Assembly: GCA_035464675.1 (NCBI GenBank)
Contig: DATHSA010000033.1
Location: forward strand, 1,403-65,402
Origin: Acidimicrobiia bacterium
GTDB taxonomy: Bacteria > Actinomycetota > Acidimicrobiia > Spongiisociales > UBA11373
Direction of reading: 5' to 3'
Length of the DNA stretch: 64,000 bases
This document shows positions 5,025 through 57,331 of the stretch, piece by piece. Position 1 is the first letter of the stretch, and each line of letters starts with the position of its first letter. The position numbers were made by a program, and so were the translations under genes. The notes under the pieces are model-generated. The model saw nothing but the letters and a program-made list of their open reading frames with translations, was not told the origin of the DNA and searched no databases.

Positions 5025-7532
5025 TCAGCCTTCCGAATCGGCCATCTCCACCGGCGGCTGATCCGGCGCCTCGATCGGGGAGAACGTGATCTGCTCCGGA
5101 TCCTCGGGATCGAGGTCGACGAGGATCGTCGATCCTGCTGAGAACTCGCCGAACAGCACCTTCTCGGAGAGCTGATCCTCCAGCATTCGCTGGATGGCGC
5201 GACGCAGGGGCCGGGCGCCCAGCTGCGGGTCATAGCCCTTGGTGCCGAGCAGCGCCTTGGCGTCGTCGGTGAGCACCAGGTCCAGCGCCTGGGACTTGAG
5301 CTGCTCGCGGACGCGAACCAGCATGAGGTCCACGATCGACTTGACCTCGTCCATGGTCAACTCGTGGAACACGATCACCTCGTCGATTCGGTTCAGGAAC
5401 TCGGGACGGAATTGCTTCTTGAGCGCCTCGGTCACCTTCTCCTTGATCTTCTGATAGGAGATCTCCTCGGTCTCCGACGCGAAGCCGATCGACTTGCGCT
5501 TCAGCTCCTGGGTCCCCAGGTTCGAGGTCATGATGATGACGGTGTTCTTGAAATCCACCGTGCGGCCCTGCGAGTCGGTGAGCCGCCCGTCCTCGAGGAT
5601 CTGCAGCAGCGTGTTGAACACGTCGGGATGCGCCTTTTCGATCTCGTCGAAGAGCACCACCGAGAACGGCTTGCGGCGCACGGCCTCGGTGAGCTGCCCA
5701 CCCTCGTCGTAACCCACGTATCCCGGAGGGGACCCGACCAGGCGGCTCACCGTGTGCTTCTCCATGTACTCGGACATGTCGAGCTGGATGAGGGCGTGCT
5801 CGTCGCCGAACAGGAACTCGGCAAGGGCCTTGGCGGTCTCGGTCTTCCCGACGCCCGACGGTCCGAGGAAGATGAACGATCCGGCCGGGCGCTTGGGGTC
5901 CTTGAGGCCGGCCCGGGTCCTGCGGATGGCACGGCTGACGGCTTGGATCGCCTCGTGCTGGCCGACGATGCGCTTGTGGAGCTCATCCTCCATCTTGAGG
6001 AGCTTGGCGGTCTCCTCCTCGGTGAGGCTCTGCACCGGGATGCCGGTCCATTGGGCCAGCACCTCGGCGATCTGCTCCTCGTCGATGATCGAGCCGACGA
6101 CGTCTTCGGATTCACCCAGCGACGACTCGGCGTCGCTGCGGTCGGAGACGAGAGTGCGCTCCTCGTCGCGCAGCTTGGCGGCCTGCTCGTACTGCTGGTC
6201 CTGGACTGCCGTCTCCTTGCGCTTGCGCACGTCGACGAGCTTGCCCTCGATCGCCTCCAGCTCGGGTGTCGGGGGTCTGCGATTGATCCGCATGCGGCTG
6301 CCGGCCTCGTCGATGAGGTCGATGGCCTTGTCCGGCAGGTGCCGGTCGGCGATGTACCGGTCGGCGAGGTTGGCGGCGGACACGAGGGCCTGATCGGTAT
6401 ACGACGCGCGGTGATGCGCCTCGTACTTCTCCCGCAGCCCGGTGAGGATCTGGATCGTCTCGGCGACGGTCGGCTCGTCGACCTGGATCGGCTGGAACCG
6501 GCGTTCGAGGGCCGAGTCCTTCTCGAGGTACTTCCGGTACTCCTCGAGTGTGGTGGCACCGATGGTCTGGAGCTCTCCGCGGGCCAACATCGGCTTGAGG
6601 ATGCTGGCGGCGTCGATTGCCCCCTCGGCGGCACCCGCCCCCACCAGGGTGTGGATCTCGTCGATGAAGAGAATGATGTCGCCGCGGGTGCGGATCTCCT
6701 TGAGGACCTTCTTGAGACGCTCCTCGAAGTCTCCGCGGTAGCGCGACCCGGCGACCAGGGCGCCCAGGTCGAGGGTGTAGAGGTGCTTACCGTTGAGGGT
6801 CTCCGGCACGTCGCCGGCCACGATCCGCTGCGCCAGGCCCTCGACGATCGCGGTCTTCCCCACCCCCGGCTCGCCGATGAGCACCGGATTGTTCTTGGTT
6901 CGGCGGGAGAGGATCTGCATGACACGCTCGATCTCGCGTTGGCGACCGATGACCGGGTCGAGCTTGCGGTCGCGGGCGTACTGCGTGAGGTTCCGGCCGA
7001 ACTGGTCCAGAACCGTCGAGCCGCTGGCGCTCTCTGAGCTGCCCCGGCCGCGTCCCGACGAGCCGGCCGGCTCACCAGACGACGGCTCGTCGCCCTGGGC
7101 GCCGGAGAGCAGCTGGATCACCGTTTGGCGGACCTTGTGGAGCTCGGCTCCCAGCTTCTGGAGGACCTGAGCGGCGACCCCCTCGCCCTCACGGATGAGA
7201 CCAAGAAGGATGTGCTCGGTGCCGATGTAGTTGTGACCGAGTTGGAGGGCCTCGCGTAGCGACAGCTCGAGCACCTTCTTGGCCCTCGGCGTGAAGGGGA
7301 TGTGACCAGAGGGCGCCTGGGCTCCCTGGCCGATGATCTCGACGACCTGGCTGCGCACTGACTCGAGGGAGATTCCCATGCTCTCGAGCGCGCGGGCTGC
7401 AACGCCTTCCCCCTCGTGGATGAGGCCGAGGAGGATGTGCTCGGTACCGATGTAGTTGTGATTGAGCAGCCGGGCTTCCTCCTGCGCGAGGACCACGACC
7501 CTCCTGGCTCTATCGGTGAACCGTTCGAACAA
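5025..7532 (-). CDS. clpC: ATP-dependent Clp protease ATP-binding subunit ClpC, 835 aa
   Basis: N-terminus [36 protein letters not shown] (repeated Clp_N domain), two AAA+ modules ([16 protein letters not shown]), UVR-like linker. Start at TTG 7532 preceded by AGGGAG with a 7-nt spacer. The ORF-track start at 7613 adds a non-conserved extension. Confidence 0.95.
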
Positions 7533-14844: not shown

Positions 14845-15726
14845 TCACGGCGCATCTCCGTACAACACGGATCGGCCTTCGAGGCGAGTCCCCCGGTCGG
14901 CGGTGCCGTCTGTATCGAGGAACACGTTGTCGATCAGGCGGACGTCGCCGACGGTCGCCGCCACCGCCAGGAATGCGTCGCGGTCGAGGAAACCGATCGG
15001 TCGAGCGGTGTGACGGTCGGCAAGGGTGACGTACTGCACGGTCGCCCCGGCGGCGGAGGCGGTCTCCCGGACCATTTGCTCCAGGGCGGCGCCGTCCCGC
15101 TCCCCCACCGCGGCGGCGTCGGCGGCGGCGAACAGGCCGCGTGAAAGGCCAAGCGCCGCCTTCCGGTCCGGGATGCGCACATTGCGGCTCGACAGGGCAA
15201 GGCCATCCTGCTCCCGCACCGTCGACACCGCGACGATCTCCACCGGGAACGAGAGGTCCCGCACCATCGTCGTCACCACGGCCAGCTGCTGAGCGTCCTT
15301 GCGTCCAAAGGAGGCGAGGTCCGGGCGGATTCCGGCGAGCAACTTGGCGACGACGGTCGCCACGCCGTCGAAGTGACCCGGACGGTAAGCGCCCTCCATC
15401 GCATCTGTCACTCCGGAGACCTGGACCCGGGTCACCGGCTCCTGCCGATACATCTCACCGTCCCCCGGAACGAACAGCACGTCGACGCCGGCACCCTCGG
15501 CCAGCCCGACGTCGCGGTCGAGGTCGCGCGGGTACCGCTCGAGATCGGAGGGGCTGTCGAATTGGATCGGATTCACGAAGACGCTCATCACCGCGAGATC
15601 GGCCATGCCGCGGATTGCGGCGACGCACCCCAGGTGGCCCTCGTGGAGAAACCCCATCGTGGGAACCAGGCCGACCACCCCCCTGGCCGCCTGCCGAACC
15701 TCCCGCATCGTCTCCGCGATGATCAT
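14845..15726 (-). CDS. panC: Pantoate--beta-alanine ligase, 293 aa
   Basis: PTMGFLHEGH HIGH-like motif and typical PanC sequence. ATGA overlap with the upstream gene. Confidence 0.95.
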   Translation of the reverse strand: MIIAETMREVRQAARGVVGLVPTMGFLHEGHLGCVAAIRGMADLAVMSVFVNPIQFDSPSDLERYPRDLDRDVGLAEGAGVDVLFVPGDGEMYRQEPVTRVQVSGVTDAMEGAYRPGHFDGVATVVAKLLAGIRPDLASFGRKDAQQLAVVTTMVRDLSFPVEIVAVSTVREQDGLALSSRNVRIPDRKAALGLSRGLFAAADAAAVGERDGAALEQMVRETASAAGATVQYVTLADRHTARPIGFLDRDAFLAVAATVGDVRLIDNVFLDTDGTADRGTRLEGRSVLYGDAP

Positions 15727-16535
15727 GACAACGCCCCCTCGATGATCTCCGCGGTTCCTGCCACCCGCGCCGTGGCCCGCACCATCGCCGCGAAATCACC
15801 GGCGAGATGTGGCGCCGCGGACCGGATCGCCTCCATCTGCGCTCGCACCGTTCCCACGTCGCCCCGGGCTACCGGGCCGGTCAACGCCTCCACGGGACCC
15901 ATGTCGAGGGCGTTGTCGACCACAGCCCTGATCAGTGGCTGGGCCACGGTGAAGTCGACACCCGCCGCCTCGAACAGCTCCCGCGAGAGCGCGAGCGCCG
16001 CCAGGGTGAAGTTCGCCGCCGCTGCGGCCGCGGCGTGATAGAGCGGCTTCGCATGGTCCTCCAGCTCGAAGGGGTGCGCCCCCAGCGACGCTGCAAACGC
16101 AAAGAGGCGGTCGGCGAAGGCGTTGTCACTCGAGGTGATCGCCACCCACGCATCGCGGAGCCGGGCGGCGCCGGCCTCGGGCGTCGGAAGCGTCTGGAGC
16201 GGATGGAACGACCCCAGCGGTGGCCCCTCCAACGCCGCGAGGGCAGCCACCGGTCGCAGGCCCGAGAGGTGCACCGCGCCTTCGAGGGCTCCCGCCTTGT
16301 CGGAGAGACGCTGCGCCACTTCGGTGATGGCGTCGTCGCGCACGGCCACGACGAGCAGGTCTGCGCGCGGGAGCCCCCGATCCCAGGAGAGCGGCGATGC
16401 ATCAATGCGTTCGGCGGCCGCGACCGCGTCCTCCGGGTCCCTGGCGAGCACGCCCACCACGCGATGGCCGGCGCCCACCGAGGCCAAGGAGAGGGCGAGG
16501 CCGGCCCGACCGGGGCCGACGAGGATGAGATCCAT
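15723..16535 (-). CDS. Rossmann-fold / DUF2520 domain protein (Rv3603c-like, usually linked to panC), 270 aa
   Basis: N-terminal LILVGPGRAGLAL dinucleotide-binding motif. Conserved position upstream of panC in actinobacteria. Confidence 0.75.
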   Translation of the reverse strand: MDLILVGPGRAGLALSLASVGAGHRVVGVLARDPEDAVAAAERIDASPLSWDRGLPRADLLVVAVRDDAITEVAQRLSDKAGALEGAVHLSGLRPVAALAALEGPPLGSFHPLQTLPTPEAGAARLRDAWVAITSSDNAFADRLFAFAASLGAHPFELEDHAKPLYHAAAAAAANFTLAALALSRELFEAAGVDFTVAQPLIRAVVDNALDMGPVEALTGPVARGDVGTVRAQMEAIRSAAPHLAGDFAAMVRATARVAGTAEIIEGALS

Positions 16536-16611
16536 GCGTTCCAGTCCTCTAGGGGTACCAGACGAGGATTCATCCTACGGCATCGAATCCACTCATCACC
16601 AGGGGCGACGT

Positions 16612-17097
16612 CTACCAGTCCGCCGAGCCGGCCCACCGCCGGGCCTTCTGATCACTCACATCGGCAAGGAGGTCCTCCACGGACCCCAGCCCCGGGATCT
16701 CGACTCCCGGCCACGCTTCGGCCAGCGGAGCCAGCACGAAGCGCCGCTCCACCATTCGCGGGTGAGGAATCCTGAGTCCGGGAACGTCGATCACCGCATC
16801 GGCGTACAACAGCAGGTCGAGGTCGAGTACCCGGGGACCCCACCTCTCACGCCGCTCCCTCCCGGCTTCGCGCTCGATCTCGAGACAGCCGCCGAGGAGC
16901 GGCCGGGGGCCGAGGACGGTGTGCATCACGACCACCGCGTTCAGGTACGGGCCCTGTGGCGGGCCTCCCACAGGATCGGTCTCCCAGAGTGATGAACGCG
17001 ACAGGACCTCTCCCAGAGCCGCGAGACCGCGAACGGCTCCCACGAGGTGTGCCGCCCGATCGCCGAGGTTCGAGCCGAGCCCGATGGCGACCCGCAG
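16612..17097 (-). CDS. folK: 2-amino-4-hydroxy-6-hydroxymethyldihydropteridine diphosphokinase (FolK); start codon non-canonical or unresolved
   Basis: RVAIGLGSNLGDR...LWETDPVGGPPQGPYLNAVV...RWGPRVLDLDLLLY...PHPRMVERRFVLAPL. The conserved AIGLGSNLGD strand lies upstream of the first GTG/ATG (17043). The only in-frame candidate is CTG 17097, 1 nt after the upstream stop. Confidence 0.8.
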   Translation of the reverse strand: MRVAIGLGSNLGDRAAHLVGAVRGLAALGEVLSRSSLWETDPVGGPPQGPYLNAVVVMHTVLGPRPLLGGCLEIEREAGRERRERWGPRVLDLDLLLYADAVIDVPGLRIPHPRMVERRFVLAPLAEAWPGVEIPGLGSVEDLLADVSDQKARRWAGSADW

Positions 17098-17098
17098 G

Positions 17099-17578
17099 TC
17101 ACGCCCCGGTTGACTCGGGGATGATCGCCCGGGCCTCGGGGCCCAGAGGGCGCTTGAGGATTCGTTGGACGATGTCGGTGGCCACGATCGGGTCTTCCAC
17201 CCGGCCGGAATGGACGAGGTAGCCGGCGAGCACCCCCGCGACGGCGTCGTCGACGATGTCGCGGTGGACGAGAAGGACGGTCCCTGGCTTGGCCGCGATC
17301 TCCTGCATCTTCTTGAACACCCGGCCGACCGACCCCGGTTCGAGGTCGTTGAGCGGCTCGTTGTGAGCTTCGATCTCCGCCGCCTGATAGGCGGCGATGT
17401 TCTGATTGCCCTCCAGGAGTGAGAGGACGGCGGTCACACCTGCGTTCTTCAACCAGGCGATCTCCTCCTCGCGCCGGACCCGGCGGTGCTGAGCGCCATG
17501 GCCTCCGATGCGCTCCGAGACGGCGAGACGGTCGGAGATCACCCAGGTGAAGTCGCGGGGTTCCAGTCCGGTCATCAT
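17099..17578 (-). CDS. PTP/dual-specificity-phosphatase-fold protein lacking the CX5R catalytic loop (pseudophosphatase), 159 aa
   Basis: Aligns by eye along its whole length with small archaeal/bacterial PTPs. The P-loop HCxxGxxR(S/T) is replaced by HRDIVDDAV. Start overlaps the folP stop (TGATG). Its stop is 1 nt from the folK frame. Confidence 0.6.
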   Translation of the reverse strand: MMTGLEPRDFTWVISDRLAVSERIGGHGAQHRRVRREEEIAWLKNAGVTAVLSLLEGNQNIAAYQAAEIEAHNEPLNDLEPGSVGRVFKKMQEIAAKPGTVLLVHRDIVDDAVAGVLAGYLVHSGRVEDPIVATDIVQRILKRPLGPEARAIIPESTGA

Positions 17579-18369
17579 CAGGGTCTCTCCCGCCTCACGA
17601 TAGCGTCCACCATGCGCGCCGAGCGCAGTCCCTCGACCACGTTGTGTGTGCGGATGACGCTCGCTCCGGAGGCGATCGCCAGGGCGTGGGCAGCCGTGGT
17701 GGGACCATCGCGCTCCTCCACCGGGATCGGACCGAGGACCCGCTCGATGAACGACTTCCGCGACGCCCCGACGAGCACCGGGCGGCCCGTCCCCGCGAGC
17801 CGGGCCACGCCATCGGTGAGGAGATCGAGGTTGTGGGCGACCGTCTTGCCGAAGCCGATACCGGGGTCCACGCAGATCCGGGAGGGGTCGACGCCATGGA
17901 CCACGGCGTGCTCGGTGCGATCTACCAGGTAGTTGGCGACATCCTCCACGACGTCCGCGTAGCGGGGATCGTCCTGCATGGTCCTGGGGCTTCCCAGCAT
18001 GTGCATCAGGACCAGCCCCACCCCCGACTCGGCCACGAGCGTGGCCATTGCCGGATCGCCGAGCGCAGTGACATCGTTGACGATCGCGGCACCATCCGCG
18101 ATCGCCGCCCTGGCAACGGTCGCCTTCGAGGTGTCGATCGAGACCACGATCCCCTCACGGGTGAGGGCCCTCACGACAGGGACGATGCGATCAGCCTCGG
18201 CATCCGCGTCGACGGGGTCCGCTCCGGGACGCGTCGACTCCCCTCCAACGTCGATGAGATCCGCGCCGTCCCTGGCCATCTGCAGACCGTGGGCGACGGC
18301 GGCGTCGAAGGCCAGGAACCTCCCGCCGTCCGAGAACGAGTCGGGGGTGACGTTGAGGATCCCCATCAC
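17578..18369 (-). CDS. folP: Dihydropteroate synthase, 263 aa
   Basis: GILNVTPDSFSDGG and DVGGESTRPG motifs. Confidence 0.95.
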   Translation of the reverse strand: MMGILNVTPDSFSDGGRFLAFDAAVAHGLQMARDGADLIDVGGESTRPGADPVDADAEADRIVPVVRALTREGIVVSIDTSKATVARAAIADGAAIVNDVTALGDPAMATLVAESGVGLVLMHMLGSPRTMQDDPRYADVVEDVANYLVDRTEHAVVHGVDPSRICVDPGIGFGKTVAHNLDLLTDGVARLAGTGRPVLVGASRKSFIERVLGPIPVEERDGPTTAAHALAIASGASVIRTHNVVEGLRSARMVDAIVRRERP

Positions 18370-18446
18370 GAGGGTGTGATGCTCGTTGGAGAGGGTGGCG
18401 CCCCCGCCGATCTCCCAGCGGGTCGGCTCGAATGGTCGCCGCAGGC

Positions 18447-20399
18447 TCAGGAGGAGCCGCTCCCATCGGAGGTGCGCGCCGCGGCGATGTCACCCCGGGC
18501 GATCTCGCCGTTGGGCGCCTGGATCCGCATCGAGCCGTTGGGAACGTGCTCCCACTTGGGCACGTCGGCAAGGATCTCCTCGATGTCGGGCGCATAGAGC
18601 GTCTCTTTGTCGAGGAGTGCATCGGCCAGTCGGTCGAGGGCGTCCCGATGAGTCGTGATGATCGCCCGCGCCTCTTCGTGCGCCTGGTTGATCAGCTTGC
18701 GGACCTCCTCGTCGATCATCGCCGCGACCTCGTCCGAGTAGTCGATCGATCGGTTGTAGTCCCGCCCGAGAAACACCTGCCCCTGCGGGGTTCCGTACCG
18801 CATCGGGCCGAGGCGGTCGCTCATGCCGTGCTCCATGACCATGGAACGGGCGAGGTCCGTGGCCTGCTCGATGTCGTTGTGGGCCCCCGTCGAGGGATCC
18901 CCGAAGATGATCTCCTCGGCAGTCCGCCCCCCGAGGGCGCGTGCCAGCGTGTCGACCATCTCGGAGCGGCGGCGATACGATCGGTCCTCCATCGGCATCG
19001 AGCGGGTGTACCCACCCATCCGACCGCGAGGGATGATCGTCACCTTGGTCACCGGGTCGGCGTGTGGGAGGGCGAACCCGACCAGCGCGTGGCCGCCCTC
19101 GTGGTAGGCGGTGAGCTGCTTCTCCTCGTCGGTCATCACCTTGCTTCGGCGCTCGGGCCCTGCGATGACCCGGTCGATCGCCTCCTCCAACTCGGCCTGG
19201 GAGATCTCGTCCTTGTCCCTGCGGGCGGCGAGCAGCGCCGCCTCGTTGATGGTGTTGGCCAGGTCCGCACCTGTGAAGCCGGGCGTCGCCCGGGCGATCT
19301 GGGCAAGATCGACGTCGTCGCCGAACGGCTTGCCCTTGGCGTGGACCTCGAGGATCTTCTCCCTGCCCCTGATGTCGGGACGGTCGACGACGATCTGGCG
19401 ATCGAATCGACCCGGTCGCAGCAGCGCCGGGTCGAGGATGTCCGGCCGGTTGGTGGCGGCGATGAGGATCACGCCGGTCTTCACGTCGAACCCATCCATC
19501 TCCACCAGCAGCTGGTTGAGGGTCTGCTCACGCTCGTCGTGGCCGCCACCGAGGCCGGCACCGCGGTGGCGGCCAACGGCGTCGATCTCGTCCACGAAGA
19601 CGATCGCCGGTGCCTGCGCCTTTGCCTGCTCGAAGAGATCGCGGACCCGGCTGGCTCCGACGCCGACGAACATCTCGACGAAGTCGGACCCGGAGATCGA
19701 GAAGAACGGGACTCCCGCCTCGCCGGCGACGGCACGGGCGAGCAGGGTCTTGCCGGTGCCCGGCGGGCCGTACAGCAGAACACCCTTGGGGATCTTGGCG
19801 CCCATCGCACGGAACTTCTGGGGTCGCGACAGGAACTCCTTGATCTCGTAGAGCTCCTCGACCGCCTCCTCGGCCCCGGCGACATCGGCGAACGTGACCT
19901 TGGGCATGTCGCGGCTGATCTGCTTCGCCTTGGCCTTGCCGAACTGCATCACCCGGTTGCCGCCGCCCTGCATCTGCAGGAGGATGAATATGAAGACACC
20001 GAAGATCAGCACGTACGGCAGGACTGCCAGCAACCACTCCCAGATCCCCGGATTCTCGGACTCGATCTCGAGAACCACTCCGTTGTCGAGAATCAACCGG
20101 GTCAGGTCGCCTTCGTAGCCATCGGGGAACGTGGTCTCGAACCGGCCGCCACCGGCACCCTCCGTGTACGTGCCGGTGATGACGTTGGACTTCTGCTTGA
20201 TCGTGACGGTCTCGATGTCACCGGCGGCGAGTTGTGTCTCGAACCGGTCCAGCGTCAGCTCCTCGGGGCCGGTCGCCGAGCTGACAAAGGTGTTGACCAG
20301 CATGATCGCCACGGTGACGATCACCAGGTACACCAGCACGGTGCGAACGGTTCGGCTCACGTGTTCGAGTCCAATCGAAGACGGTGGGACCGGCGCCAT
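18447..20399 (-). CDS. ftsH: ATP-dependent zinc metalloprotease FtsH, 650 aa
   Basis: Two N-terminal TM segments, AAA module [18 protein letters not shown], zinc motif HEGGHAL. Confidence 0.97.

Positions 20400-20528: not shown

Positions 20529-20532
<4 letters not shown>
20510..20532 (-). terminator. Perfect 10-bp stem / 3-nt loop hairpin overlapping the hpt stop codon
   Basis: GTGAGAGGGC-acc-GCCCTCTCAC. The hpt TGA (20531..20529) lies inside the stem. No clear U-tract. Confidence 0.4.
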
Positions 20533-21046
<514 letters not shown>

Positions 21047-21050
<4 letters not shown>

Positions 21051-22318
21051 GTCTTCACCGCGGCCACGCCCACATCACCACCCTGTCCGGCTGCGACCCG
21101 GATGGCCACCACCCACACGATTCTCCCATCGGACTCGAGGACCGGCCAGCGCGCTCGCAGACGCGAAGGCACGCCGGCCTCGGACAGAGCGTCGGAGACC
21201 TTCTTGGCGCCCCCGGGGATCGCGATCCGGTCGCCGGGCCGGGCGGCACGCACGACCAGGGGACCCTCGGGTACGACCGCCCCGTGGCGGCCAAGGCCGG
21301 CGGAGCCGGGTGCGCCGGAGACGACACGCCAGGGCCCGAAGACGACCTCACCGGGAATCTCGAGGCCAACCGGCTCAGGTGGGGACGGTGGCTCCCCGGC
21401 GTGGACGGCGACATAGGGTCCCTCGCGCTGTGCCAGGAACCCGCCGGCGATCTGGCCGGCCGTGCCGGAGACCGCCGCGAGCACGGCGGCGACGTCGGCC
21501 GCGGTGCCGGGATAGGGGTCGAGGACGATCCGCAGGGCCCGCCTCGCGACACGCGCGGCGACCGGTGCCGGGAGTGCAACGAGGGCGGCGGCCGGAACCA
21601 GCACGGCCTCCTCGTCGTGGCGTATCGGCACCTCCCCGGCGCGAGCTTCGAGCATCTCGTCGTCGGCCGCGACGAAGTCTGCCGTACGAGCGAGTGCCTC
21701 CCGCAGCCCGGGGTTGAACTCTCGCTCCAGAAGCGGAATCACCTCCTGGCGGAGCCGGTTGCGCCGAACCGACACGTCGTCATTCTGAGGATCGTCGACG
21801 AACGGGAGCTCGGCGGCCCGGGCGACGGCCCGCGCCCGATCCCTGGGGATCCCGAGGAGGGGACGCGCCCAGGGGAAGCGCCGACGCGGAATCCCCCTCA
21901 GACCGCCTGACCCGGCTCCCCGGATCAGGTTCCCCAACACGGTTTCGGCCTGGTCGTCGCGGGTGTGTCCGGTGAGGATCCACTCGGCGGAGTCACGAGC
22001 CTTCTCGAGCGCCTCCAGACGGGACTGCCGCAGCTCGGTCTCGGTGTCTCCACCCGGTGCGTCGATGATCACGTGCTCGAGCCCGAGATGGTCGGCGATC
22101 TCGGTCGCGGCGCGGACCAGCGACCCGGAGCCGGGGAGGTGGTGATGCACCGTCACGGCCCGAGCCGGCGCACCCGATCCAGCCACCGCATAGGCCATCG
22201 CCGCGGAATCGGCTCCGCCGCTGAGGGCGACAAGGACGCTACCCGGGGGGAGCTCCGCGGCGACCTCGGCCACGAAAGCATCCAGATCCGCGGTGCTCAG
22301 CCCACCCGTTCCAGCCAC
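21047..22318 (-). CDS. tilS: tRNA(Ile)-lysidine synthase, 423 aa
   Basis: PP-loop VALSGGADS. Conserved position upstream of hpt. Confidence 0.9.
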
Positions 22319-37992: not shown

Positions 37993-39192
37993 TCAGATGT
38001 TGTAGTCCACCAGCATTTGACGGCCCGACTCCATGCGGACGTGGCTGACGCTGGTGTTCCCCGGCATGGCGAGGTTGCGCCATTCCGACCAGGTGAGCCC
38101 GAGCACCCGGGCGGTCAGGGACCAGATCGCACCGCCATGGCTGAACAGGGCAACGCGCTCGCCGGGATGGTGGGCGTTCATCCGTTCGATGACCGCGGCC
38201 ATCCGCTGCCCGACGGCCTCGAAGGTGTCACCTGTGCCTCCCCGGGGGATGTCCTCGCCGGATTCGAACACCCTTGCCCAGTCCTCGGGGTGCTGCTCGG
38301 CGATCTCGTGCGGCGTCAGGCCCTCCCAGGCCCCGAAGTCCACCTCGATGAGATCGCCCAGAAGGCCGACTGAAAGGCCGTGTACACCGGCGAAGGCCTC
38401 CGCGGTGGCGCGGGCTCGCTCGAGGGGTGACGAATAGACCCTGGTCACCCCGGCGTACCGCCGCCCCAGATTTTCGGCCTGGCGCCTGCCCTGCGTCGTG
38501 AGCGGCCCGTCGGTCACGCCGTGCCACCGGCCGGCGGCGTTGGCCTCCGACTCGGCATGTCGGATGAGCGCGATCCCATTGGTGTCGTCGTCGACGAAAT
38601 GGGTCTGGTCGTTGAACGACCCGAGCCGGAAGGCGCCGTCCTCGACGGAGACCTCGGTGATCCCAGTGTTGCGCACCCGGTCGATCGGCCAAGGAGCGCT
38701 GCGATCGCGGAACCGCATCTGCCCCGCAATGACAGCGTGTACCACCCCTCCATGGGTCATCACCAATATCCGGGAGTCGGCGGGGGCTTCGTCGACCAGG
38801 ACTTCAAAGGAGTCGTTGACCCGCCGGCCGAGGTCGTGCCACGACTCGCCGCCGCCCATCTTCACCGGCTCGCCGGCGCGGACGGCGGTGATCTCGTCGG
38901 GGAACCGGGCGTGCACCTCGTCGCGGGTCAGCCCTTCCCAGACGCCTATGTCGATCTCCCGCCAGGCCGGGTCGGGCTTGGGGTCGAGCCCGGCTGCCTC
39001 CGCCGTGTCGATGGCGCGGGGGAGGTCGGAGGACACGACGAAGTCGAACTCCTGCCCGGCTAGCCGCCGACCCAGCGCCTCGGCCTGCAGGCGTCCGCGA
39101 GCGCTGAGGCCGTGGCCCCCGTGCCCCTGCCAGATCCCCGACGCGTTGGCGTCGGTCTCGGCATGGCGGACGAAGGTGATGTGGACGGGCAT
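37993..39192 (-). CDS. Tandem (duplicated) histidine phosphatase / PGAM-superfamily protein, 399 aa
   Basis: Two complete domains, each with the RHG-type motif (FVRHAETDAN... and LIRHAESEAN...) and a downstream catalytic His region. Confidence 0.85.
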   Translation of the reverse strand: MPVHITFVRHAETDANASGIWQGHGGHGLSARGRLQAEALGRRLAGQEFDFVVSSDLPRAIDTAEAAGLDPKPDPAWREIDIGVWEGLTRDEVHARFPDEITAVRAGEPVKMGGGESWHDLGRRVNDSFEVLVDEAPADSRILVMTHGGVVHAVIAGQMRFRDRSAPWPIDRVRNTGITEVSVEDGAFRLGSFNDQTHFVDDDTNGIALIRHAESEANAAGRWHGVTDGPLTTQGRRQAENLGRRYAGVTRVYSSPLERARATAEAFAGVHGLSVGLLGDLIEVDFGAWEGLTPHEIAEQHPEDWARVFESGEDIPRGGTGDTFEAVGQRMAAVIERMNAHHPGERVALFSHGGAIWSLTARVLGLTWSEWRNLAMPGNTSVSHVRMESGRQMLVDYNI

Positions 39193-39353
39193 CGCTGGGC
39201 GCACAGGCTAGGGCGTGTCGGGTCGACGGCAGACCGCGTCCGAGCGGCGCAGCCGACCCGAGACCGGTCAAGAGGAGGAACCGAGAATCCACTTACAGAG
39301 CGGCACCCCCGCAAGTAGATTGAATCGTGACTCTCGACACGACTGGAGGAGTC

Positions 39354-39770: not shown

Positions 39771-41825
39771 TCAAATGAAGGCAGACGCGAAGATCAGCGA
39801 CACGATCGTCATCACCTTGATCACGATGTTCATCGCCGGCCCGGCGGTGTCCTTGAAGGGGTCACCGATGGTGTCGCCCACGACGGCGGCCTTGTGGGCG
39901 TCAGAGCCCTTCCCTCCGTAGGCACCGGCCTCGATGAACTTCTTGGCGTTGTCCCAGGCACCGCCGGCGTTCGCCATGAAGATGGCGAGCAGGAAGCCCG
40001 TGATCAGCGCCCCGGCGAGGAATCCTCCCAGGGCCTGGACATCTATGAACCCGATGACGAGCGGAAGCGCAACCGCGAGGGCGCCCGGGATCACCATCTC
40101 TCGAAGCGCCGACGCCGTCGAGATGTCGACGCAGCGGGCGTATTCGGGACGGGCGTCCTCACGACCCTCACGCAGCCCGGGGATCTCGCGGAATTGCCGC
40201 CGCACCTCTTCGATCATCTGGTTGGCAGCTCTGCCCACCGCCTTGATCGTCAGCGCGGCGAACAGGAAGGGGAACATCGCACCGAGGAAGAGCCCGATCG
40301 TGGTCTCGACCTGGATGATGTCGATGACCTCCAGCTGGACCGCCTCTCGGAACGCGAAGAAGAGGGCCAGGGCGGTGACGGCGGCCGACCCGATGGCGAA
40401 GCCCTTGGCCACCGCGGCGGTGGTGTTGCCCAGGGAGTCCAGGGCATCGGTGGCCTGCCGGACCTCCTTGGGGAGATGCGCCATCTCGGCGATGCCGCCG
40501 GCGTTGTCGGCGATCGGGCCGTAGGCGTCGACCGAGACGGTGATGCCCAGAGTGGACAGCACGCCGATGGCGGCGATGGCGATGCCATAGATGCCACCCT
40601 GATCGAACGCCAGATCCCCGGCCCAGTAGGCGCCTCCGATTCCCGCTGCTACCACGATCACGGAGAAGGCGGCCGAGCGCATGCCGTCGGCGATGCCGGC
40701 CAGCACCACGGTTGCCGGCCCCGTCTCCGCCTGCCTGGCGATCTCCTTCACCGGCCGCCAGTGGTCCGAGGTGAACATCTCAGAGAGCTGCCCGATGGCC
40801 AGACCGACCGCGAGGCCGACTACGACGGCGAGGAACAGGCCGATCGGGTTGTCGACGCCTTCGAGGTCGCCGAACAGCCCGTACACCAGGCCGAGCGTGC
40901 CGAGCACGGTGAGGATCGCTGCCGCGTAGGTGCCGCGATGCAGGGCGGCGGCGAGGTTGGTGCCCGTGGGGCGGACCAGGAAGGAGCCGAGGATGGAGGC
41001 TCCCATGCCGACCGCGGCCACGGCGAGCGGGAAGACCAGAGCCTGCGGTAGGAACGGCTGCCCGGCGAAGACGAAGGCGGCGAAGGCGATCGGGGCGACG
41101 AGCGACCCGACGTACGACTCGAACAGGTCGGCACCCATCCCGGCGACGTCGCCGACGTTGTCGCCCACGTTGTCGGCGATCACGGCCGGATTGCGCGGGT
41201 CGTCCTCGGGGATCCCCGCCTCGACCTTGCCCACCAGGTCGGCGCCGACATCGGCCGCCTTGGTGTAGATGCCGCCGCCCACCCTGGCGAACAGCGCGAT
41301 CGAAGACCCCCCCAGACCGACCGCGGTGAGCACCTGGTACGGATCGTCCACCTCGAGCCAGCGGACGAAGACGAGGAAGGCGAGCCCCAGCCCGGCGAGG
41401 CCGAGCCCGGCGACGCTGAAGCCCATGACCGCACCGCCGCGGAAAGCCAATGGAAGCGCCTCGCGCACGCCGCCCCTCCGGGCCGCCTCGGCGGTACGGG
41501 AATTCGCGGCGGTGGCGATCCGCATTCCGATGAAGCCGGCGAAGGCCGAGAGGAGCGCCCCGAACACGTAGGCGAGGGCCCCCCAGGGCCGGCCGTAGTC
41601 GAGGAGGGCGAAGATCAGGCCCGCCATGAGCACGACGAAGACCGCCACCCAGGTGTACTCACGGCGGAGGAACGCCATTGCACCTTCACGGATGGCCGCC
41701 GAGATCTCCCTCATCCGGTCGTTTCCGGCGGGTGCGGCTAGCACCTGACGGGAGAACAGAACGGCCAGCAGCAGGCCCGCTGCGCCTGCGCCGACGGCGA
41801 TGTACAACCAGACGTCCGGATCCAC
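39771..41825 (-). CDS. hppA: Membrane-bound ion-translocating pyrophosphatase, 684 aa
   Basis: GDNVGDVAGMGADLFESY and other H+-PPase signatures. GAGGAG SD, GTG start. Confidence 0.95.
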   Translation of the reverse strand: MDPDVWLYIAVGAGAAGLLLAVLFSRQVLAAPAGNDRMREISAAIREGAMAFLRREYTWVAVFVVLMAGLIFALLDYGRPWGALAYVFGALLSAFAGFIGMRIATAANSRTAEAARRGGVREALPLAFRGGAVMGFSVAGLGLAGLGLAFLVFVRWLEVDDPYQVLTAVGLGGSSIALFARVGGGIYTKAADVGADLVGKVEAGIPEDDPRNPAVIADNVGDNVGDVAGMGADLFESYVGSLVAPIAFAAFVFAGQPFLPQALVFPLAVAAVGMGASILGSFLVRPTGTNLAAALHRGTYAAAILTVLGTLGLVYGLFGDLEGVDNPIGLFLAVVVGLAVGLAIGQLSEMFTSDHWRPVKEIARQAETGPATVVLAGIADGMRSAAFSVIVVAAGIGGAYWAGDLAFDQGGIYGIAIAAIGVLSTLGITVSVDAYGPIADNAGGIAEMAHLPKEVRQATDALDSLGNTTAAVAKGFAIGSAAVTALALFFAFREAVQLEVIDIIQVETTIGLFLGAMFPFLFAALTIKAVGRAANQMIEEVRRQFREIPGLREGREDARPEYARCVDISTASALREMVIPGALAVALPLVIGFIDVQALGGFLAGALITGFLLAIFMANAGGAWDNAKKFIEAGAYGGKGSDAHKAAVVGDTIGDPFKDTAGPAMNIVIKVMTIVSLIFASAFI

Positions 41826-50341: not shown

Positions 50342-52588
50342 ATGCACCCCGCCGTCGCGTCATGGCTCGCCGATCCCGAGCGGGCCGACCGGATCGCCCA
50401 CGTGGAGACGGTCGCCGAGCGCCGGGCCATCTTCGAGGACCTCGACCCGCCGATGCCGGACGACCTACGGGCCGCTCTCGCCGAACGAGGGATCGACCGC
50501 CTGTACCGCCACCAGGCGCAGGCGATCAAGCGCGCCCGGGCCGGGACGCACACGGTGGTCGTGGCCGGCACGGCTTCGGGAAAGTCCCTGGGCTATCAGG
50601 TGCCGATCCTGGAGGCGGCACTGGAGGACCGGGCCGCGACGGCCCTCCTCCTCTTCCCGACCAAGGCCCTCGCGCGCGATCAGTTCCGGGCGATGCATGC
50701 CTTCGGCATCCCCGAGGTGACACCGGTCGTCTATGACGGCGACACCGACTCGGAGACGAGATCATGGGCCCGCAAGCACGCCACGGTCGTCATGACCAAC
50801 CCCGACATGCTGCACGTCGGGATCCTGCCCTCGCACGGCAAGTGGGCCACATTCTTCCGGAGGCTCCAGTACGTGGTGATCGACGAGGTCCACGTGCTCC
50901 GGGGCATCTTCGGAAGCCACGTCGGCAACGTGGTGCGGAGGCTGCGCCGGGTGGCCCGTCACTACGGCGCCGATCCCACATTCCTCGGGTCGTCGGCGAC
51001 GATCGGCAACCCCGGGGAGCTGATGTCGGCGCTCACCGGCCTGCCCGTCGATGTCGTCGAACAGGACGCCTCGCCCGCGGGCGTGCGGCACTACGTCCTG
51101 TGGAATCCCGAGTTGGAGGAGGACGACACCCGGCGCAGCCCCCTCGCCGAGACCACGGATCTGTTTGTCGACCTGGTCGGTCGGGGCGAGCACACCATCG
51201 CCTTCGCCCGCAGCCGAAAGGGAGTGGAGCTGGTCTACCGGTGGGCTCGCGAGCGGCTCGACCTCGACCTCGCCGATCGCATCGCTCCGTACCGGGCGGG
51301 ATACCTGCCGGAACAGCGTCGCGAGATCGAGGAGCGCCTGTTCTCCGGCGAGCTGCTCGGCGTCACTGCCACCAACGCATTGGAACTGGGGATCGACGTG
51401 GGCGGCCTCGACGCCGCCATCGTCGCCACATTCCCGGGGACGGTCGCCTCGTTCCGCCAGCAGACCGGACGAGCGGGGAGATCCACCGAGGAGTCGTTGT
51501 CGGTGCTGGTCGCCGGCCAGGACGCCCTCGATCAATGGTACGTGAACCACCCCGGAGACCTGTTCGGCCGACCCTCCGAGGCAGCGGTGGTGAACCCGGC
51601 CAATCCTCACATCCTCGCCGGCCACATGGGCTGCGCCGCCTACGAGATCCCGATGCTCTCCGAGGACGCAGTGGCCACCTTTGGACCGGAGGTCGAGTCG
51701 CTGGCTGCCGACCTCGTCTCCGAGGGCGCGCTGCGCATCCGGAACGGACGGCTCCTCTGGGCCGGGCGAGGCGCCCCGGCTCCTGCCATCGACATCCGGA
51801 CTGCCGGAGGGCCGCCCTACACCATCGTCGACACCCGAGGTGAGGTGATGGGGACCGTCGACGAGAGCCGCGTGTTCTCACAGGCCCATCCCGGTGCGGT
51901 CTACCTCCACCAGGGCGACTCGTATGTGATCGAGAACCTGTCGGTGGAGGACCGGCTGGTGCGGGCCCGCCCCGGCGAGGTCGGGTACTACACGCAGCCG
52001 GAGGAGGACACCACCGTCGAGGTCCGCGTCGTGCTGCGTTCAGGCGCGGTCGGGCGCTTCGGGCACAGGCTGGGCGATGTCGAGGTCGAATCGCGCGTCA
52101 CCGGGTTCAAGCGCAAGAAGATCTCGGACCGCAGCGTCATCTCGTACGAGCCTCTCGACCTGCCGCCACGGCGCTACGAGACCCAGGCGATCTGGTTCAC
52201 GGTGGACGACGACCTGCTGCGCGATGCCGGGATCGCCACCGTCGACCTGCCGGGCACCCTCCACGCCGCCGAGCACACCGGGATCGCCATGCTCCCCCTC
52301 TTCGCCATCTGCGACCGGTGGGACATCGGCGGGCTGTCGACACCCTTCCACGCCGCGACCGGCATGCCCGTCTGGTTCATCTACGACGGCTACCCCGGCG
52401 GCGCCGGAATCGCCCCCCTCGCCTATCAGGCCGGCACGCGTCACCTCTCGGCGACGCTCGAGGCGCTGCGCACCTGCCCCTGTGACACCGGTTGTCCCTC
52501 ATGCGTCCAGTCGCCCAAGTGCGGCAACTTCAACGAGCCCCTGGACAAGGCGGGGGCGATCCGGCTGCTCGAGGTGGGCCTGGGGTGA
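50342..52588 (+). CDS. DEAD/DEAH-box helicase with C-terminal 4-Cys DUF1998 (MrfA/Rv3649-like 'helicase/secretion neighbourhood' helicase), 748 aa
   Basis: Internal ATG 50342 of ORF 50198..52588. Walker A GTASGKS, DEVH box, C-terminal CPCDTGCPSCVQSPKCGN. Confidence 0.9.
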   Translation: MHPAVASWLADPERADRIAHVETVAERRAIFEDLDPPMPDDLRAALAERGIDRLYRHQAQAIKRARAGTHTVVVAGTASGKSLGYQVPILEAALEDRAATALLLFPTKALARDQFRAMHAFGIPEVTPVVYDGDTDSETRSWARKHATVVMTNPDMLHVGILPSHGKWATFFRRLQYVVIDEVHVLRGIFGSHVGNVVRRLRRVARHYGADPTFLGSSATIGNPGELMSALTGLPVDVVEQDASPAGVRHYVLWNPELEEDDTRRSPLAETTDLFVDLVGRGEHTIAFARSRKGVELVYRWARERLDLDLADRIAPYRAGYLPEQRREIEERLFSGELLGVTATNALELGIDVGGLDAAIVATFPGTVASFRQQTGRAGRSTEESLSVLVAGQDALDQWYVNHPGDLFGRPSEAAVVNPANPHILAGHMGCAAYEIPMLSEDAVATFGPEVESLAADLVSEGALRIRNGRLLWAGRGAPAPAIDIRTAGGPPYTIVDTRGEVMGTVDESRVFSQAHPGAVYLHQGDSYVIENLSVEDRLVRARPGEVGYYTQPEEDTTVEVRVVLRSGAVGRFGHRLGDVEVESRVTGFKRKKISDRSVISYEPLDLPPRRYETQAIWFTVDDDLLRDAGIATVDLPGTLHAAEHTGIAMLPLFAICDRWDIGGLSTPFHAATGMPVWFIYDGYPGGAGIAPLAYQAGTRHLSATLEALRTCPCDTGCPSCVQSPKCGNFNEPLDKAGAIRLLEVGLG

Positions 52589-52789
52589 CGGGCAGGGGGC
52601 GGCGGAGACAGCGGGCGAGCCCGCGGCGGCTCCTCAGCCCACGTACGCCCCGGGACCCTCACACACCCATGCCATCCTCTCCGCGACCTGCTCACCCTCC
52701 GGCCTCGGCCCACGGACGTACCGGGTCGGGCCGGCCTACTCGTACTCGAAGAGCCGCTGCCGGGCGCGTCGTGGGCCCTTGGCCCGGTC

Positions 52790-52795
52790 TACCGT
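52790..52795 (+). promoter_or_regulatory. Putative -10 box TACCGT (context TCTACCGTTCT), 31 nt upstream of GTG 52827
   Basis: The 10-mer CTACCGTTCT is identical to that upstream of msrA (58273-58282). The leader contains a GAGGAG SD. Confidence 0.3.
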
Positions 52796-52826
52796 TCTCA
52801 GACGACACCACCGAGGAGCGGCGGAA

Positions 52827-53456
52827 GTGCAACACATCGTCGACACGGTTCTCGACAAGCTGGGGCCGCACGGCCTGGACACCATCGCCGGGAAGCTCGG
52901 CCTCGACCGGGCGGACGCAAAGCGAGGCGTGACCACGGCCGTCACCGCGCTGACCGGCGCCCTCGCCCACAATGCCTCCAAGCCGGAGGGGGCCAGGTCG
53001 CTCGACTCGGCACTCGAGCGGGACCACGACGGAGGGATCTTCGACAACCTCGGCGACTACCTCGGCGACTTCGCCGCCGGCCCGGGCAAGGCGATCCTCG
53101 GGCACGTCTTCGGAAGCAAGGAGCCGACGGTCGAGAAGGCCGTGGCCGACAAGTCGGGCCTTCCGCTCGACAAGGTGGTACCTCTCCTCACGATGGTGGC
53201 CCCCCTGGTGCTGGGCGCTCTCGGCAGGAGGAAGAAGGAGGAGAATCTCGACGCCTCACAGATGGCAACGACTCTCGCCGAAGAGCGCGCGGCGGCTGCG
53301 GAGAAGGACGACGGGGGCATCCTCGACACGGTGATGGGTGCCCTGGGCGGCCTCACCGGATCGGGTCAGTCGTCCGGAGGAGGCAGCAAGGGCGGCCTGG
53401 GGGGACTCTTGAACGCAATCGGGGGACTGTTCGGAGGGAAGAAGAAGGGGCCTTAG
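52827..53456 (+). CDS. DUF937-like protein (Gly-rich C-terminus), 209 aa
   Basis: GTG 52827 with a GAGGAG SD, in frame within ORF 52077..53456. Sequence LDKLGPHGLDTIAGKLGLD...GGLLNAIGGLFGGKKKGP resembles DUF937 proteins. Confidence 0.65.
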   Translation: MQHIVDTVLDKLGPHGLDTIAGKLGLDRADAKRGVTTAVTALTGALAHNASKPEGARSLDSALERDHDGGIFDNLGDYLGDFAAGPGKAILGHVFGSKEPTVEKAVADKSGLPLDKVVPLLTMVAPLVLGALGRRKKEENLDASQMATTLAEERAAAAEKDDGGILDTVMGALGGLTGSGQSSGGGSKGGLGGLLNAIGGLFGGKKKGP

Positions 53457-53492: not shown

Positions 53493-53516
53493 AGACGCTG
53501 GCGACCGGTGGCCTCT

Positions 53517-53903
53517 TCATGGATCCAGCAGAAGTGCCGGCACGAACTCGGCCCTTCCTGTCGCCCGGACCGTGAACACTCCGAGCGGCCAGATCTCGAC
53601 CGTACGCTCCGTCGTCACCTCCACCGTTCGAGGCTCCCACGACTGGTCACGCTCGCACATGCACAGCACCACCCGGGCGCCGTTGAGCCGGGCGAACCGG
53701 ATCGCCTCATCCACCGGCGGCCCCTTCGATCCGAAAGGCAGGAAGGTGATCGGGGCGGCGGCCAGAGCCGCGGCGTCCGCCGCGGTGCTTGCCTCCACCC
53801 GGGCCCGCAGGTAGGCACCGACCGCGGCAAGCCCTACGGCGAGAACCAGTACCAGACCCATGACGCCGATGAGGGCCAGCGAGGCGCTTCCCCGATCGCT
53901 CAC
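53517..53903 (-). CDS. TadE-like secretion-neighbourhood protein (Rv3654c-like), 128 aa
   Basis: N-terminal GSASLALIGVMGLVLVLAV pseudopilin-like segment. Last gene of the tad operon. 4-nt overlap with the upstream gene. Confidence 0.7.
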   Translation of the reverse strand: MSDRGSASLALIGVMGLVLVLAVGLAAVGAYLRARVEASTAADAAALAAAPITFLPFGSKGPPVDEAIRFARLNGARVVLCMCERDQSWEPRTVEVTTERTVEIWPLGVFTVRATGRAEFVPALLLDP

Positions 53904-54265
53904 TGCTCGACCCGCATCACGGCCCGTGCCACCAGGGTCACATCGAATCCGCCGAAGAGCGGAGCCGCCACCCGGTGGCGAAGACGCACCACCACCTCTG
54001 CGGTGCCACCCACCCGGTGCTCACGTGCCACCGACACCCGCGCCCGGGATCCGGTCTCGCCGCCGAGCGCCCGACGCACCGCCGCCACCGCCCGCTCTGG
54101 CTCGGGGGACGTGGCCGCCTCCCGCGCCCCTTCCCTCGCCGCGCTGCTCACCTCCAGCTGGACCCGCGCCGCCACCGCCACTTCGACCGCTGCCAGGAGG
54201 ACCAGCAGGACCACGGGGAGGACGAGGGCGAACTCCACGGCGGCGGAGCCCCGATCGCGGCTCAC
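53900..54265 (-). CDS. TadE family pilus-assembly protein, 121 aa
   Basis: Start GTG 54265 overlaps the pilin stop (GTGA). DRGSAAVEFALVLPVVLLVLLAAVE TadE motif. Confidence 0.75.
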   Translation of the reverse strand: MSRDRGSAAVEFALVLPVVLLVLLAAVEVAVAARVQLEVSSAAREGAREAATSPEPERAVAAVRRALGGETGSRARVSVAREHRVGGTAEVVVRLRHRVAAPLFGGFDVTLVARAVMRVEQ

Positions 54266-54429
54266 CCGCCACCCGTGGCGAAACCCCGCACCCTCTGAAT
54301 CACCGCGTCGAAGAAGGAGGGCAGGACGTCCGAGCCTGCAGCCCATGAGATGAGAGCGAGCGCGACTATTGCGGCGGCGACGATCACGAGGGCGTACTCC
54401 GCGGTCGCCTGGCCGAGTTCCGATGTCAT
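54262..54429 (-). CDS. Flp/DUF4244-type small pilin-like protein, 55 aa
   Basis: Too short for the ORF track. Translated by hand as MTSELGQATAEYALVIVAAAIVALALISWAAGSDVLPSFFDAVIQRVRGFATGGG. The G-x-x-T-A-E-Y motif and hydrophobic helix are typical of Flp-like pilins. Confidence 0.75.
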   Translation of the reverse strand: MTSELGQATAEYALVIVAAAIVALALISWAAGSDVLPSFFDAVIQRVRGFATGGG

Positions 54430-54445
54430 TGGAGGCACCTTTCCG

Positions 54446-56777: not shown

Positions 56778-57331
56778 TCCGGCCACGGAAGCCCCCACGC
56801 ACTCCGCCAGGCCCGGACCCAACGATCCTTCGGCCCGGGTCTCCGACCATCGAGCAGCGACCGAACCGTTGCGGTGGAGGGGACCGGCAGGCGCACCCCG
56901 ATCCCGGGGAGGCGGGCGAACGAGGGCGTGGCCTGGAAGACGGCCGGGCCTTCGTGCGGACCGAAGAGATCCGCCGGAAGATGAAGCCTCACCGGGACCA
57001 CCGGCATCGACAGGCCCGCCGGAGCGGGACGCGGCGGAAGCCTCAGCACCACCCGCGGATGATGCGCGAGCAGAGCCTCGACCACCCTCCACGCGTCTCC
57101 CGGGCTGACACCGCCGTTGCGGAGGACGGCGACGCCGCGCCGGGGCGTGAGGTCGTCCTTGGTGACCCCGTCCTCGACGAGATCGGCGAGTGAGCGGGCT
57201 CCCGGGTACCGGGGGCCGAGGGGATCGAGATCGACGACCGCTGCATCGCCCGCCGCCAGGGCCAGCCCGAGTGGAGCGAGCGCGCCAAGCAGCCCGTCCT
57301 CCGGCGTCCACACGGCGAGCGCCGGATGCAT
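56774..57331 (-). CDS. Secretion-neighbourhood protein in the CpaE/ParA position but lacking a Walker A motif, 185 aa
   Basis: ORF 56774..57331, first gene of the tad operon. AVWTPEDGLLGALAPLGLALAAG occupies the place where ParA-like proteins carry GGxGxGKS/T. Confidence 0.55.
   Translation of the reverse strand: MHPALAVWTPEDGLLGALAPLGLALAAGDAAVVDLDPLGPRYPGARSLADLVEDGVTKDDLTPRRGVAVLRNGGVSPGDAWRVVEALLAHHPRVVLRLPPRPAPAGLSMPVVPVRLHLPADLFGPHEGPAVFQATPSFARLPGIGVRLPVPSTATVRSLLDGRRPGPKDRWVRAWRSAWGLPWPE

Follow-up and report, generated by a model that had tools for sequence, protein, structure and literature searches.

A Cys-less protein of the dual-specificity phosphatase fold in the folate operon of Acidimicrobiia

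Folate synthesis is a classical drug-targeted pathway and is regarded as completely catalogued, apart from the step that dephosphorylates dihydroneopterin triphosphate (DHNTP). The locus studied here raises the question of what an additional, unnamed gene is doing in the middle of that pathway's operon. In a 64,000-nucleotide stretch of the metagenome-assembled genome of an Acidimicrobiia bacterium (contig DATHSA010000033.1 of assembly GCA_035464675.1; hereafter, the window), the genes for dihydropteroate synthase (DHPS, folP) and hydroxymethyl-dihydropterin pyrophosphokinase (HPPK, folK) are separated by an open reading frame (ORF) for a protein of 159 amino acids (17099-17578, minus strand), at the place where clusters of the Mycobacterium tuberculosis type carry folB, the gene for dihydroneopterin aldolase. 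We call this protein X. An initial annotation, made from the letters of the window alone, had taken it for a catalytically dead phosphatase-like protein occupying the folB slot. We find that X is a genuine Cys-less member of the dual-specificity phosphatase (DSP)/protein-tyrosine phosphatase (PTP) fold and, in Acidimicrobiia, a fixed member of the pterin-branch folate operon that is translationally coupled to its neighbours. A whole bacterial class carries this extra, unnamed operon gene, and its product is more conserved than DHPS and HPPK.

The fold of X and its altered active site

The protein is 100% identical to 'hypothetical protein VK960_03895' and has no match in Pfam at E <= 1 and none in NCBIfam; its distant relatives are likewise without a named family. 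No published description was found in the literature on folate and Acidimicrobiia, on pseudophosphatases in a folate context or on auxotrophy, and the initial annotation, which knew of no described example, is borne out in this respect. A profile of the X family, compared with the sequences of the Protein Data Bank (PDB), matched a chain labelled 'dual specificity protein phosphatase family protein' (25xa_A) with an E-value of 2.5e-7, and a broader profile improved the match to 6.4e-10, with residues 9-133 of X aligning to residues 6-126 of the 162-residue chain, almost end to end. An AlphaFold2 (AF2) model built from a 79-sequence alignment reached a predicted local distance difference test (pLDDT) score of 88.2 and a predicted template modeling (pTM) score of 0.85; it supersedes an earlier model from a shallow alignment, in which residues 1-33 fell below pLDDT 50. 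Searched with this model, Foldseek returned 226 PDB matches at E <= 1e-3, the leading ones all being Cys-based DSP or PTP structures: VHZ/DUSP23 came first (E 8e-8, template modeling [TM] scores 0.69/0.73), and other top matches were a baculovirus RNA 5'-phosphatase (BVP), KAP and Cdc14, with TM scores in the range 0.66-0.73. The resemblance of X to DSP/PTP phosphatases is far above chance. The alignment with small phosphatases that had been proposed from the sequence is thus confirmed by profile, model and structure search, and neither the profile nor Foldseek places X in a non-phosphatase family.

The catalytic pocket is a different matter. In the HMMER alignment with 25xa_A, the P-loop of X, H105-R106-D107-I108-V109-D110-D111-A112, falls on H-C-R-A-G-Y-G-R without a gap, and because this pairs the positions one to one, the nucleophilic Cys is replaced by R106 and the P-loop Arg by A112. 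The initial annotation was therefore right about the missing Cys and Arg, but its two 'inserted' Asp residues are substitutions, since the loops of X and of the DSP are equally long. The searches with X matched up to 1,984 clusters, and in the part that was aligned and read, including 120 close homologues, 74 diverse representatives and the 79-sequence alignment, no Cys follows the P-loop His. The position of the P-loop Arg holds Ala or Thr throughout the window's subfamily, and the Acidimicrobiales branch alone retains Arg there (HxDExGDR). D78 of X aligns with the general-acid Asp of 25xa; most members of the subfamily have an acidic residue, Asp or Glu, at this position, which is not conserved in the Acidimicrobiales members. 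Of the signatures expected from enzymes of this part of the pathway, X shows no FolB signal (PF02152), no Nudix box (PF00293), no PF01242 and no ExxHGH motif, but the DSP fold instead.

Clustered at 90% identity, the relatives of X make up more than 1,300 groups, a number that falls to 325 when the threshold is set at 50%, and a profile search adds a distant branch at ~35-45% identity, the named members of which are Acidimicrobiales. The two branches differ in the P-loop, which reads HRD(I/L/T)(I/V)DD(A/T) in the window's branch and HxDExGDR in the distant one. Across 79 diverse members, G4, P7, R8, W12, L18, A19, E22, R23, G25, G26, H31, R32, R35, R36, E38, E39, W42, N60, Y64, H105, G115 and R150 are invariant, and D111 is nearly so. 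The most conserved segment, ERxGG...HRRVRREE between strand 2 and helix 1, has no equivalent in canonical DSPs. The overall pattern is one of a single His, conserved acidic residues in the loop and a belt of Arg (R8, R23, R32, R35, R36 and R150).

Selection on the protein was assessed from the ratio of nonsynonymous to synonymous substitution rates (dN/dS) in ten species pairs, one of which is nearly identical. In the other nine pairs, the ratio was 0.03-0.14 for X, 0.10-0.23 for FolP and 0.07-0.25 for FolK; in the nearly identical pair, it was 0.26, 0.37 and 0.45, respectively. The value for X was below that for FolP in 10/10 pairs and below that for FolK in 9/10, and X is the most constrained of the three proteins. 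The conservation and the dN/dS values led us to reject a chance ORF in a high-GC genome as an explanation of X.

Some members of the distant branch carry additional sequence. Five homologues of the Acidimicrobiales type (P0142, P0144, P0146, P0150 and P0173) have long C-terminal tails rich in Lys, Ala and Pro, one of which matches the histone-H1-like HC2 family. The HC2-like tail suggests an association with nucleic acids or other polyanions in that branch.

Gene order across the class and the loss of folE and folB

In the window, folP (17578-18369, minus strand) encodes a full-length protein of 263 amino acids (PF00809, E 1.3e-79, profile positions 1-244/244), and folK (16612 to ~17097, minus strand) a full HPPK (PF01288, E 8e-37). 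X is tightly coupled to both, as the initial annotation had stated. The stop codon of folP (TGA, 17578-17580) and the start codon of X (ATG, 17576-17578) have one base in common and form a TGATG overlap at 17576-17580 on the minus strand; overlaps of 4 nt or 1 nt between the two genes are also present in relatives. A second ATG lies at 17573-17575, and most homologues have MTGLEP as their N-terminus. On the other side, folK lies in the +1 frame relative to X, and this frame opens directly past the TGA of X. Upstream of folP, ftsH (18447-20399, minus strand; Pfam M41/AAA/FtsH_ext) is separated by a gap of exactly 77 nt, at the position where relatives have folE. Sequence and Pfam matches bear out the coordinates, gene order, gap, overlap and frame first described for this cluster, and the same holds for its missing genes: folE and folB are absent from the cluster, and among the ~45 ORFs of the 64-kb window, FolE, FolB, FolE2 and PTPS have no Pfam match. 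A scan of 16300-18700 for promoters and terminators gave no candidate.

To place this arrangement in context, we searched a set in which each species is represented by a single genome; at least 335 of these genomes carry a relative, and the best 80 loci were read. Nearly all of the X-carrying genomes inspected are labelled Acidimicrobiia, and in this sample, the family is essentially confined to that class; a cultivated carrier is Aquihabitans sp. McL0605 (L129). In all 80 X-anchored loci, X lies between ftsH or folP on one side and folB, folK or the gene of a DUF2520 protein on the other. The order of the window, ftsH-folP-X-folK, is found in 61 loci, and the complete order, ftsH-folE-folP-X-folB-folK, in 18 (15 of the 80 plus three Acidimicrobiales contigs, in which folE-folP-X-folB-folK are joined by overlapping stops and starts). 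Two loci lack folE only, two lack both folE and folP, and in one (L074, with an intact X at 5986-6468) ftsH and the DUF2520 gene flank X with no fol gene between them. Independent samples, anchored on FolB or on FolE instead of X, give the same picture: the clusters of the Acidimicrobiia type are all ordered P-X-B-K, whereas those of other actinobacteria (Amycolatopsis, Streptomyces, Mycobacterium, Microbacterium, Nitriliruptor and others) are ordered E-P-B-K and have no X. Given the cluster order in the X-, FolB- and FolE-anchored samples, X is a class-wide insertion between folP and folB, and the ancestral order is (ftsH)-folE-folP-X-folB-folK. In the loci read, X is linked to fol genes save in L074.

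This order changes how the window is to be read. X adjoins FolB, often with overlapping genes, in more than 60 Acidimicrobiia loci, which are all of the inspected clusters that have folB, and the presence or absence of folE and folB makes no difference to its P-loop (HRD(I/L/T)(I/V)DD) or its other motifs. The headline of the initial annotation, X in the folB slot as a replacement or partner of FolB, is not supported in view of this coexistence, and the distribution of X lacks the complementarity to folB that a non-orthologous replacement would be expected to show. X now stands at the folB position of other actinobacteria because the window's clade deleted folE and folB and kept folP-X-folK; it adjoins folK because the gene deleted beside it was folB. 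On a neighbor-joining tree of FtsH, FolP and X combined, all folP-X-folK genomes but one (L040, an independent case) fall into a single clade that is large and deep, and folE alone was lost several times.

Could the missing genes have moved elsewhere? Recall-controlled scans addressed this question. Among the matches listed, the FolB scan found 9 of the 22 genomes whose cluster includes folB but none (0/61) of those with folP-X-folK (Fisher p = 1.5e-6), and every Acidimicrobiia FolB listed adjoins X. For FolE, a scan with the exact 17-residue motif of the clade's protein gave a complete list of 38 matches; it recovered all 10 of the cluster copies that bear the motif, corresponding to 10/18 genomes with the gene in the cluster, against 0/61 folP-X-folK genomes (p = 3e-8). 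As neither was found in the 61 genomes, vertically inherited copies of folE and folB at other sites are unlikely, and the window's clade has lost both from the operon and, apparently, also from the genome. The genome-wide check for the two genes suggested at the outset was thus negative by these scans, with FolE2 and PTPS-III lying outside the search. FolK and FolP are intact and under purifying selection in the same genomes, and they therefore need a source of hydroxymethyl-dihydropterin. For a large environmental clade of wide distribution (61/80 of the species sampled) that keeps only FolK, X and FolP, this would mean either the salvage of pterins, and with it a metabolic dependency, or an unrecognised route to hydroxymethyl-dihydropterin. 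The latter may be, for example, FolE2 combined with PTPS-III, which bypasses FolB (PMC5041015).

Two oddities of the loci read concern the surroundings of X. In two folE-folP-X-folB-folK genomes (L053, 3232-4137, and L083, 6371-7417), a frame with Clp_N-like repeats (...GTEHILLGL) lies between X and folB, and simple ORF extension carries it on into the folB frame. One Acidimicrobiales contig (L084, 4923-6515) has a gene call of 530 amino acids that spans both tilS and hpt (ATP_bind_3 and Pribosyltran), with no ftsH separating hpt from folE.

A folK gene without a canonical start codon

The coupling of X to folK has a peculiarity of its own. In 21 related sequences from 19 species (the window plus L001-L009, L011-L013, L015, L016, L018, L020-L022, L028 and L030-L032, where L001-L003 are copies of one sequence), no in-frame ATG, GTG or TTG is found between the preceding stop and the essential N-terminal motif of FolK; in several species, even a near-cognate start codon is missing. 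The motif, (V/A)A(I/V)GLGSN, begins 13 nt past the T of the TGA of X, in the +1 frame, in all 21 sequences; in the window, the coding sequence for the conserved N-terminus (L)RVAIGLGSNLGDR opens at 17097. A GTG at 17041-17043 is the earliest canonical start codon of the window's folK, and starting there would remove the conserved motif. Gene callers cope with this poorly and either cut folK to 140-143 amino acids or begin it at ATC. An assembly error was considered as the source of the missing start and rejected, the same junction being present in all 21 sequences and in many independent assemblies.

The junction itself is strikingly uniform, with the consensus GGRG-CC-TGA-N-NYG-C. In the window (17095-17107, minus strand), it consists of a Shine-Dalgarno (SD)-like GGGG at 17104-17107, GCG, the TGA at 17099-17101, a C and a CTG at 17095-17097. 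The Gly codon upstream of the stop is GGA or GGG in 21/21 sequences, against a background of 40%, and forms an SD-like GGAG or GGGG 6 nt upstream of the codon at +4. The latter is ACG, CTG, TCG or GCG, with G as its third base in 21/21 sequences against a background of 36%, and it corresponds in position to the codon, GTG or ATG, at which folK starts in sister lineages; in the window, it is the CTG just mentioned. Five other species have an overlapping CTGA at the X/folK junction. No conserved RNA structure of the kind that stimulates frameshifting was found at the junction (-5.6 kcal/mol, no covariation).

The simplest reading of this pattern, and a likely one, would be termination-reinitiation on a very weak, non-canonical start; a +1 frameshift at GCC-UGA, yielding an X-FolK fusion, is a possible alternative. 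Under either reading, the synthesis of FolK would depend on the translation of X, which fits a functional link between the two. Long database proteins that resemble FolP-X, X-FolB-FolK or TilS-X fusions turned out to be frame-garbled calls on high-GC contigs and were kept as evidence of gene order only; none of the database proteins inspected truly joins X to FolK or FolP within one ORF.

The surroundings of the cluster in the window are of a housekeeping kind. On the minus strand, ftsH is preceded by tilS (21047-22318) and hpt (20529-21050), and folK is followed by a gene with a DUF2520/Rossmann-like Pfam match (15723-16535), then panC, coaX and lysS. Farther away, a protein of 403 amino acids with two tandem histidine-phosphatase (His_Phos_1) domains (37996-39204, minus strand) adjoins a membrane H+-translocating pyrophosphatase (39774-41825, minus strand). 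Four consecutive ORFs of 281, 511, 381 and 86 amino acids without a Pfam match (53508-57374, plus strand) follow a DUF937 protein (52077-53453) and have a third-position GC content of 0.77-0.82, against ~0.86-0.90 in neighbouring genes; this block may be acquired or lineage specific.

Proposed function and comparison with known systems

What X does for the pathway can be argued from its fold, its place and its conservation. We tentatively favour, with a probability of roughly 0.4, a role as an accessory of the pseudophosphatase type, independent of Cys, that would assist the HPPK/DHPS half of the pathway by binding pterin pyrophosphate, bridging FolK and FolP, or both. X would then be neither a classical phosphatase nor a substitute for FolB. 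The remodelled pocket, with His105, the acidic positions 107 and 111 and the belt of Arg, would bind 6-hydroxymethyl-dihydropterin pyrophosphate, possibly via Mg2+, or inorganic pyrophosphate; alternatively or additionally, X might connect FolK and FolP and, by analogy, do in trans what fusions of FolB with FolK and of FolK with FolP do elsewhere. The dead Cys site, the fixed place in the operon, the translational coupling, the retention after the loss of FolE and FolB and a constraint above that on FolP and FolK all speak for an accessory. Among the roles listed in the initial annotation, the ligand-binding or scaffolding subunit is thus the one we favour, and the non-Cys phosphohydrolase is a weakened but live rival. 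If the accessory role is correct, X would be a bacterial pseudophosphatase-like protein working in metabolism, of which we found none described, and the folate pathway would gain a component; the same gain would follow if X were a Cys-independent hydrolase on a PTP scaffold or an analogue of FolQ.

Several observations weigh against an accessory role. X persists in clusters without folP (ftsH-X-folB-folK in L039, L041 and L192), and in the metagenome-assembled genome L074, it is intact although folP and folK are both absent from the cluster; these cases fit a strict partnership with FolP and FolK only if those genes have moved. The extreme conservation and the many invariant charged residues would be expected of an enzyme as well. 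Finally, the absence of FolE and FolB from the clade comes from pattern scans of metagenome-assembled genomes for these two proteins, for which FolE2 and PTPS-III may stand in as non-homologous replacements.

The main rival, unlikely in our view though to be taken seriously, makes X the DHNTP pyrophosphatase or phosphatase of Acidimicrobiia, a non-orthologous counterpart of FolQ/NudB with a non-Cys, probably metal-assisted chemistry, in which His105, Asp/Glu107 and Asp111 would be catalytic and the belt of Arg would hold the triphosphate. To our knowledge, the characterised hydrolases of the DSP/PTP fold all use the P-loop Cys. A DHNTP-cleaving X would require chemistry not known from this fold. 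None of the family sequences aligned and read has the Cys, members of the window's subfamily have lost the Arg of the P-loop, and the general-acid position is not conserved family-wide. The invariant His, acidic and Arg residues and the very low dN/dS do look enzyme-like, however, and tri- and pyrophosphates are known substrates of PTP-fold enzymes, one of which, the baculovirus RNA 5'-phosphatase, is among the top Foldseek matches. The ancestral place of X inside the pterin-branch operon, between folP and folB, would suit such an enzyme, too, and the pyrophosphatase gene is unassigned in most bacteria, with unrelated phosphohydrolases known from folate clusters (PMC1971073). A further objection comes from the distribution: X is kept unchanged in at least 61 species that have no folE or folB in the cluster and in which neither was found elsewhere. 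With folE and folB gone, the substrate DHNTP should not exist in this clade unless FolE2 is present, and even then, the PTPS-III bypass requires no phosphatase (PMC5041015).

A second rival, which we regard as slightly more doubtful, detaches X from folate altogether and makes it a regulator or sensor that binds nucleotides, polyphosphate or RNA, or a partner of FtsH, carried along in a stable string of housekeeping genes. The string tilS-hpt-ftsH-...-panC-coaX-lysS is indeed a conserved synteny, X is present in every variant of the cluster, including ftsH-X-folB-folK and ftsH-X-DUF2520, and its many invariant Arg residues would suit a nucleic acid or another polyanion as the ligand. The precision of its location argues otherwise: in hundreds of genomes, X is found exactly between folP and folB or folK and nowhere else in the string or the genome, with overlaps of stops and starts on both sides, and the variants without folP or folK number only 4 of the ~160 loci.

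A stronger version of the folate link, in which X is a new kind of pathway component with a phosphatase fold remodelled around His, Asp and Arg residues, is required for HPPK and DHPS, whether as a carrier or chaperone that handles labile pterin pyrophosphate or as a pyrophosphohydrolase independent of Cys, and is partly made as an X-FolK frameshift fusion, strikes us as improbable; a +1 frameshift at GCC-UGA in the window's subclade would, if true, explain a folK without a start codon. A replacement of FolB by X, or a partnership offsetting its absence, is hardly credible: the window's X does sit exactly at the folB place of M. tuberculosis-type clusters with folB missing, but X and FolB are neighbours in every inspected Acidimicrobiia cluster that has folB, the sequence of X is the same with or without FolB, its fold is that of DSPs and not of FolB, and since folE was lost together with folB, the substrate of the aldolase is missing, too.

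The accessory role that we favour can be set against several known systems. The closest relatives of X in structure are the small atypical DSPs (VHZ/DUSP23, 4erc/2img; the bacterial 25xa; Tk-PTP, 5z59), with which it has in common a single alpha/beta domain of ~150-160 residues, the order of strands and helices, the His before the P-loop and the length of the loop, the homology being clear at the profile level (E 6e-10). X differs from them in lacking the nucleophilic Cys in the members read, in its acidic P-loop (HRDIVDDA here, HxDExGDR in Acidimicrobiales), in the extra invariant ERxGG...HRRVRREE segment and in the location of its gene in a metabolic operon, not a signalling context. In losing the nucleophile, X resembles the pseudophosphatases of the STYX type, which also combine a PTP/DSP fold without a working nucleophile with purifying selection and presumably act by binding; a related case is that of PRL phosphatases, which act non-catalytically on CNNM (PMC8728433). 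The known pseudophosphatases, however, work in eukaryotic signalling, with phosphoproteins or partner domains as their ligands, whereas X, for which binding is a predicted mode of action, is bacterial and belongs to a metabolic operon, a setting for which we found no bacterial pseudophosphatase described.

Within folate gene clusters, the nearest parallels are FolQ/NudB, a Nudix protein, and the HDIG protein 'FolQ2', both of them DHNTP pyrophosphatases (PMC1971073). Like X, they bring a phosphohydrolase-type fold into a folate operon, and their step is unassigned in most bacteria, actinobacteria included; their folds, however, are unrelated to that of X, which is devoid of the catalytic residues typical of its superfamily and is kept where folE and folB are gone. 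The structural neighbours of X at TM ~0.7 also include PTP-fold RNA 5'-triphosphatases (BVP, 1yn9; the metazoan capping-enzyme domain, 8p4c_M), which act on a triphosphate end and demonstrate that the fold can hold polyphosphate ligands; they do so with a Cys-phosphoenzyme mechanism that is impossible for X.

The last comparison is one of organisation rather than fold. Folate enzymes are fused in other lineages, such as FolB-FolK in the pneumococcal SulD, HPPK-DHPS in plants and Plasmodium and the trifunctional Fol1 of fungi, and these fusions physically join FolB, FolK and FolP. X is a separate, non-enzyme-like domain; co-translated between the very same genes, it may, by analogy, serve the same end.

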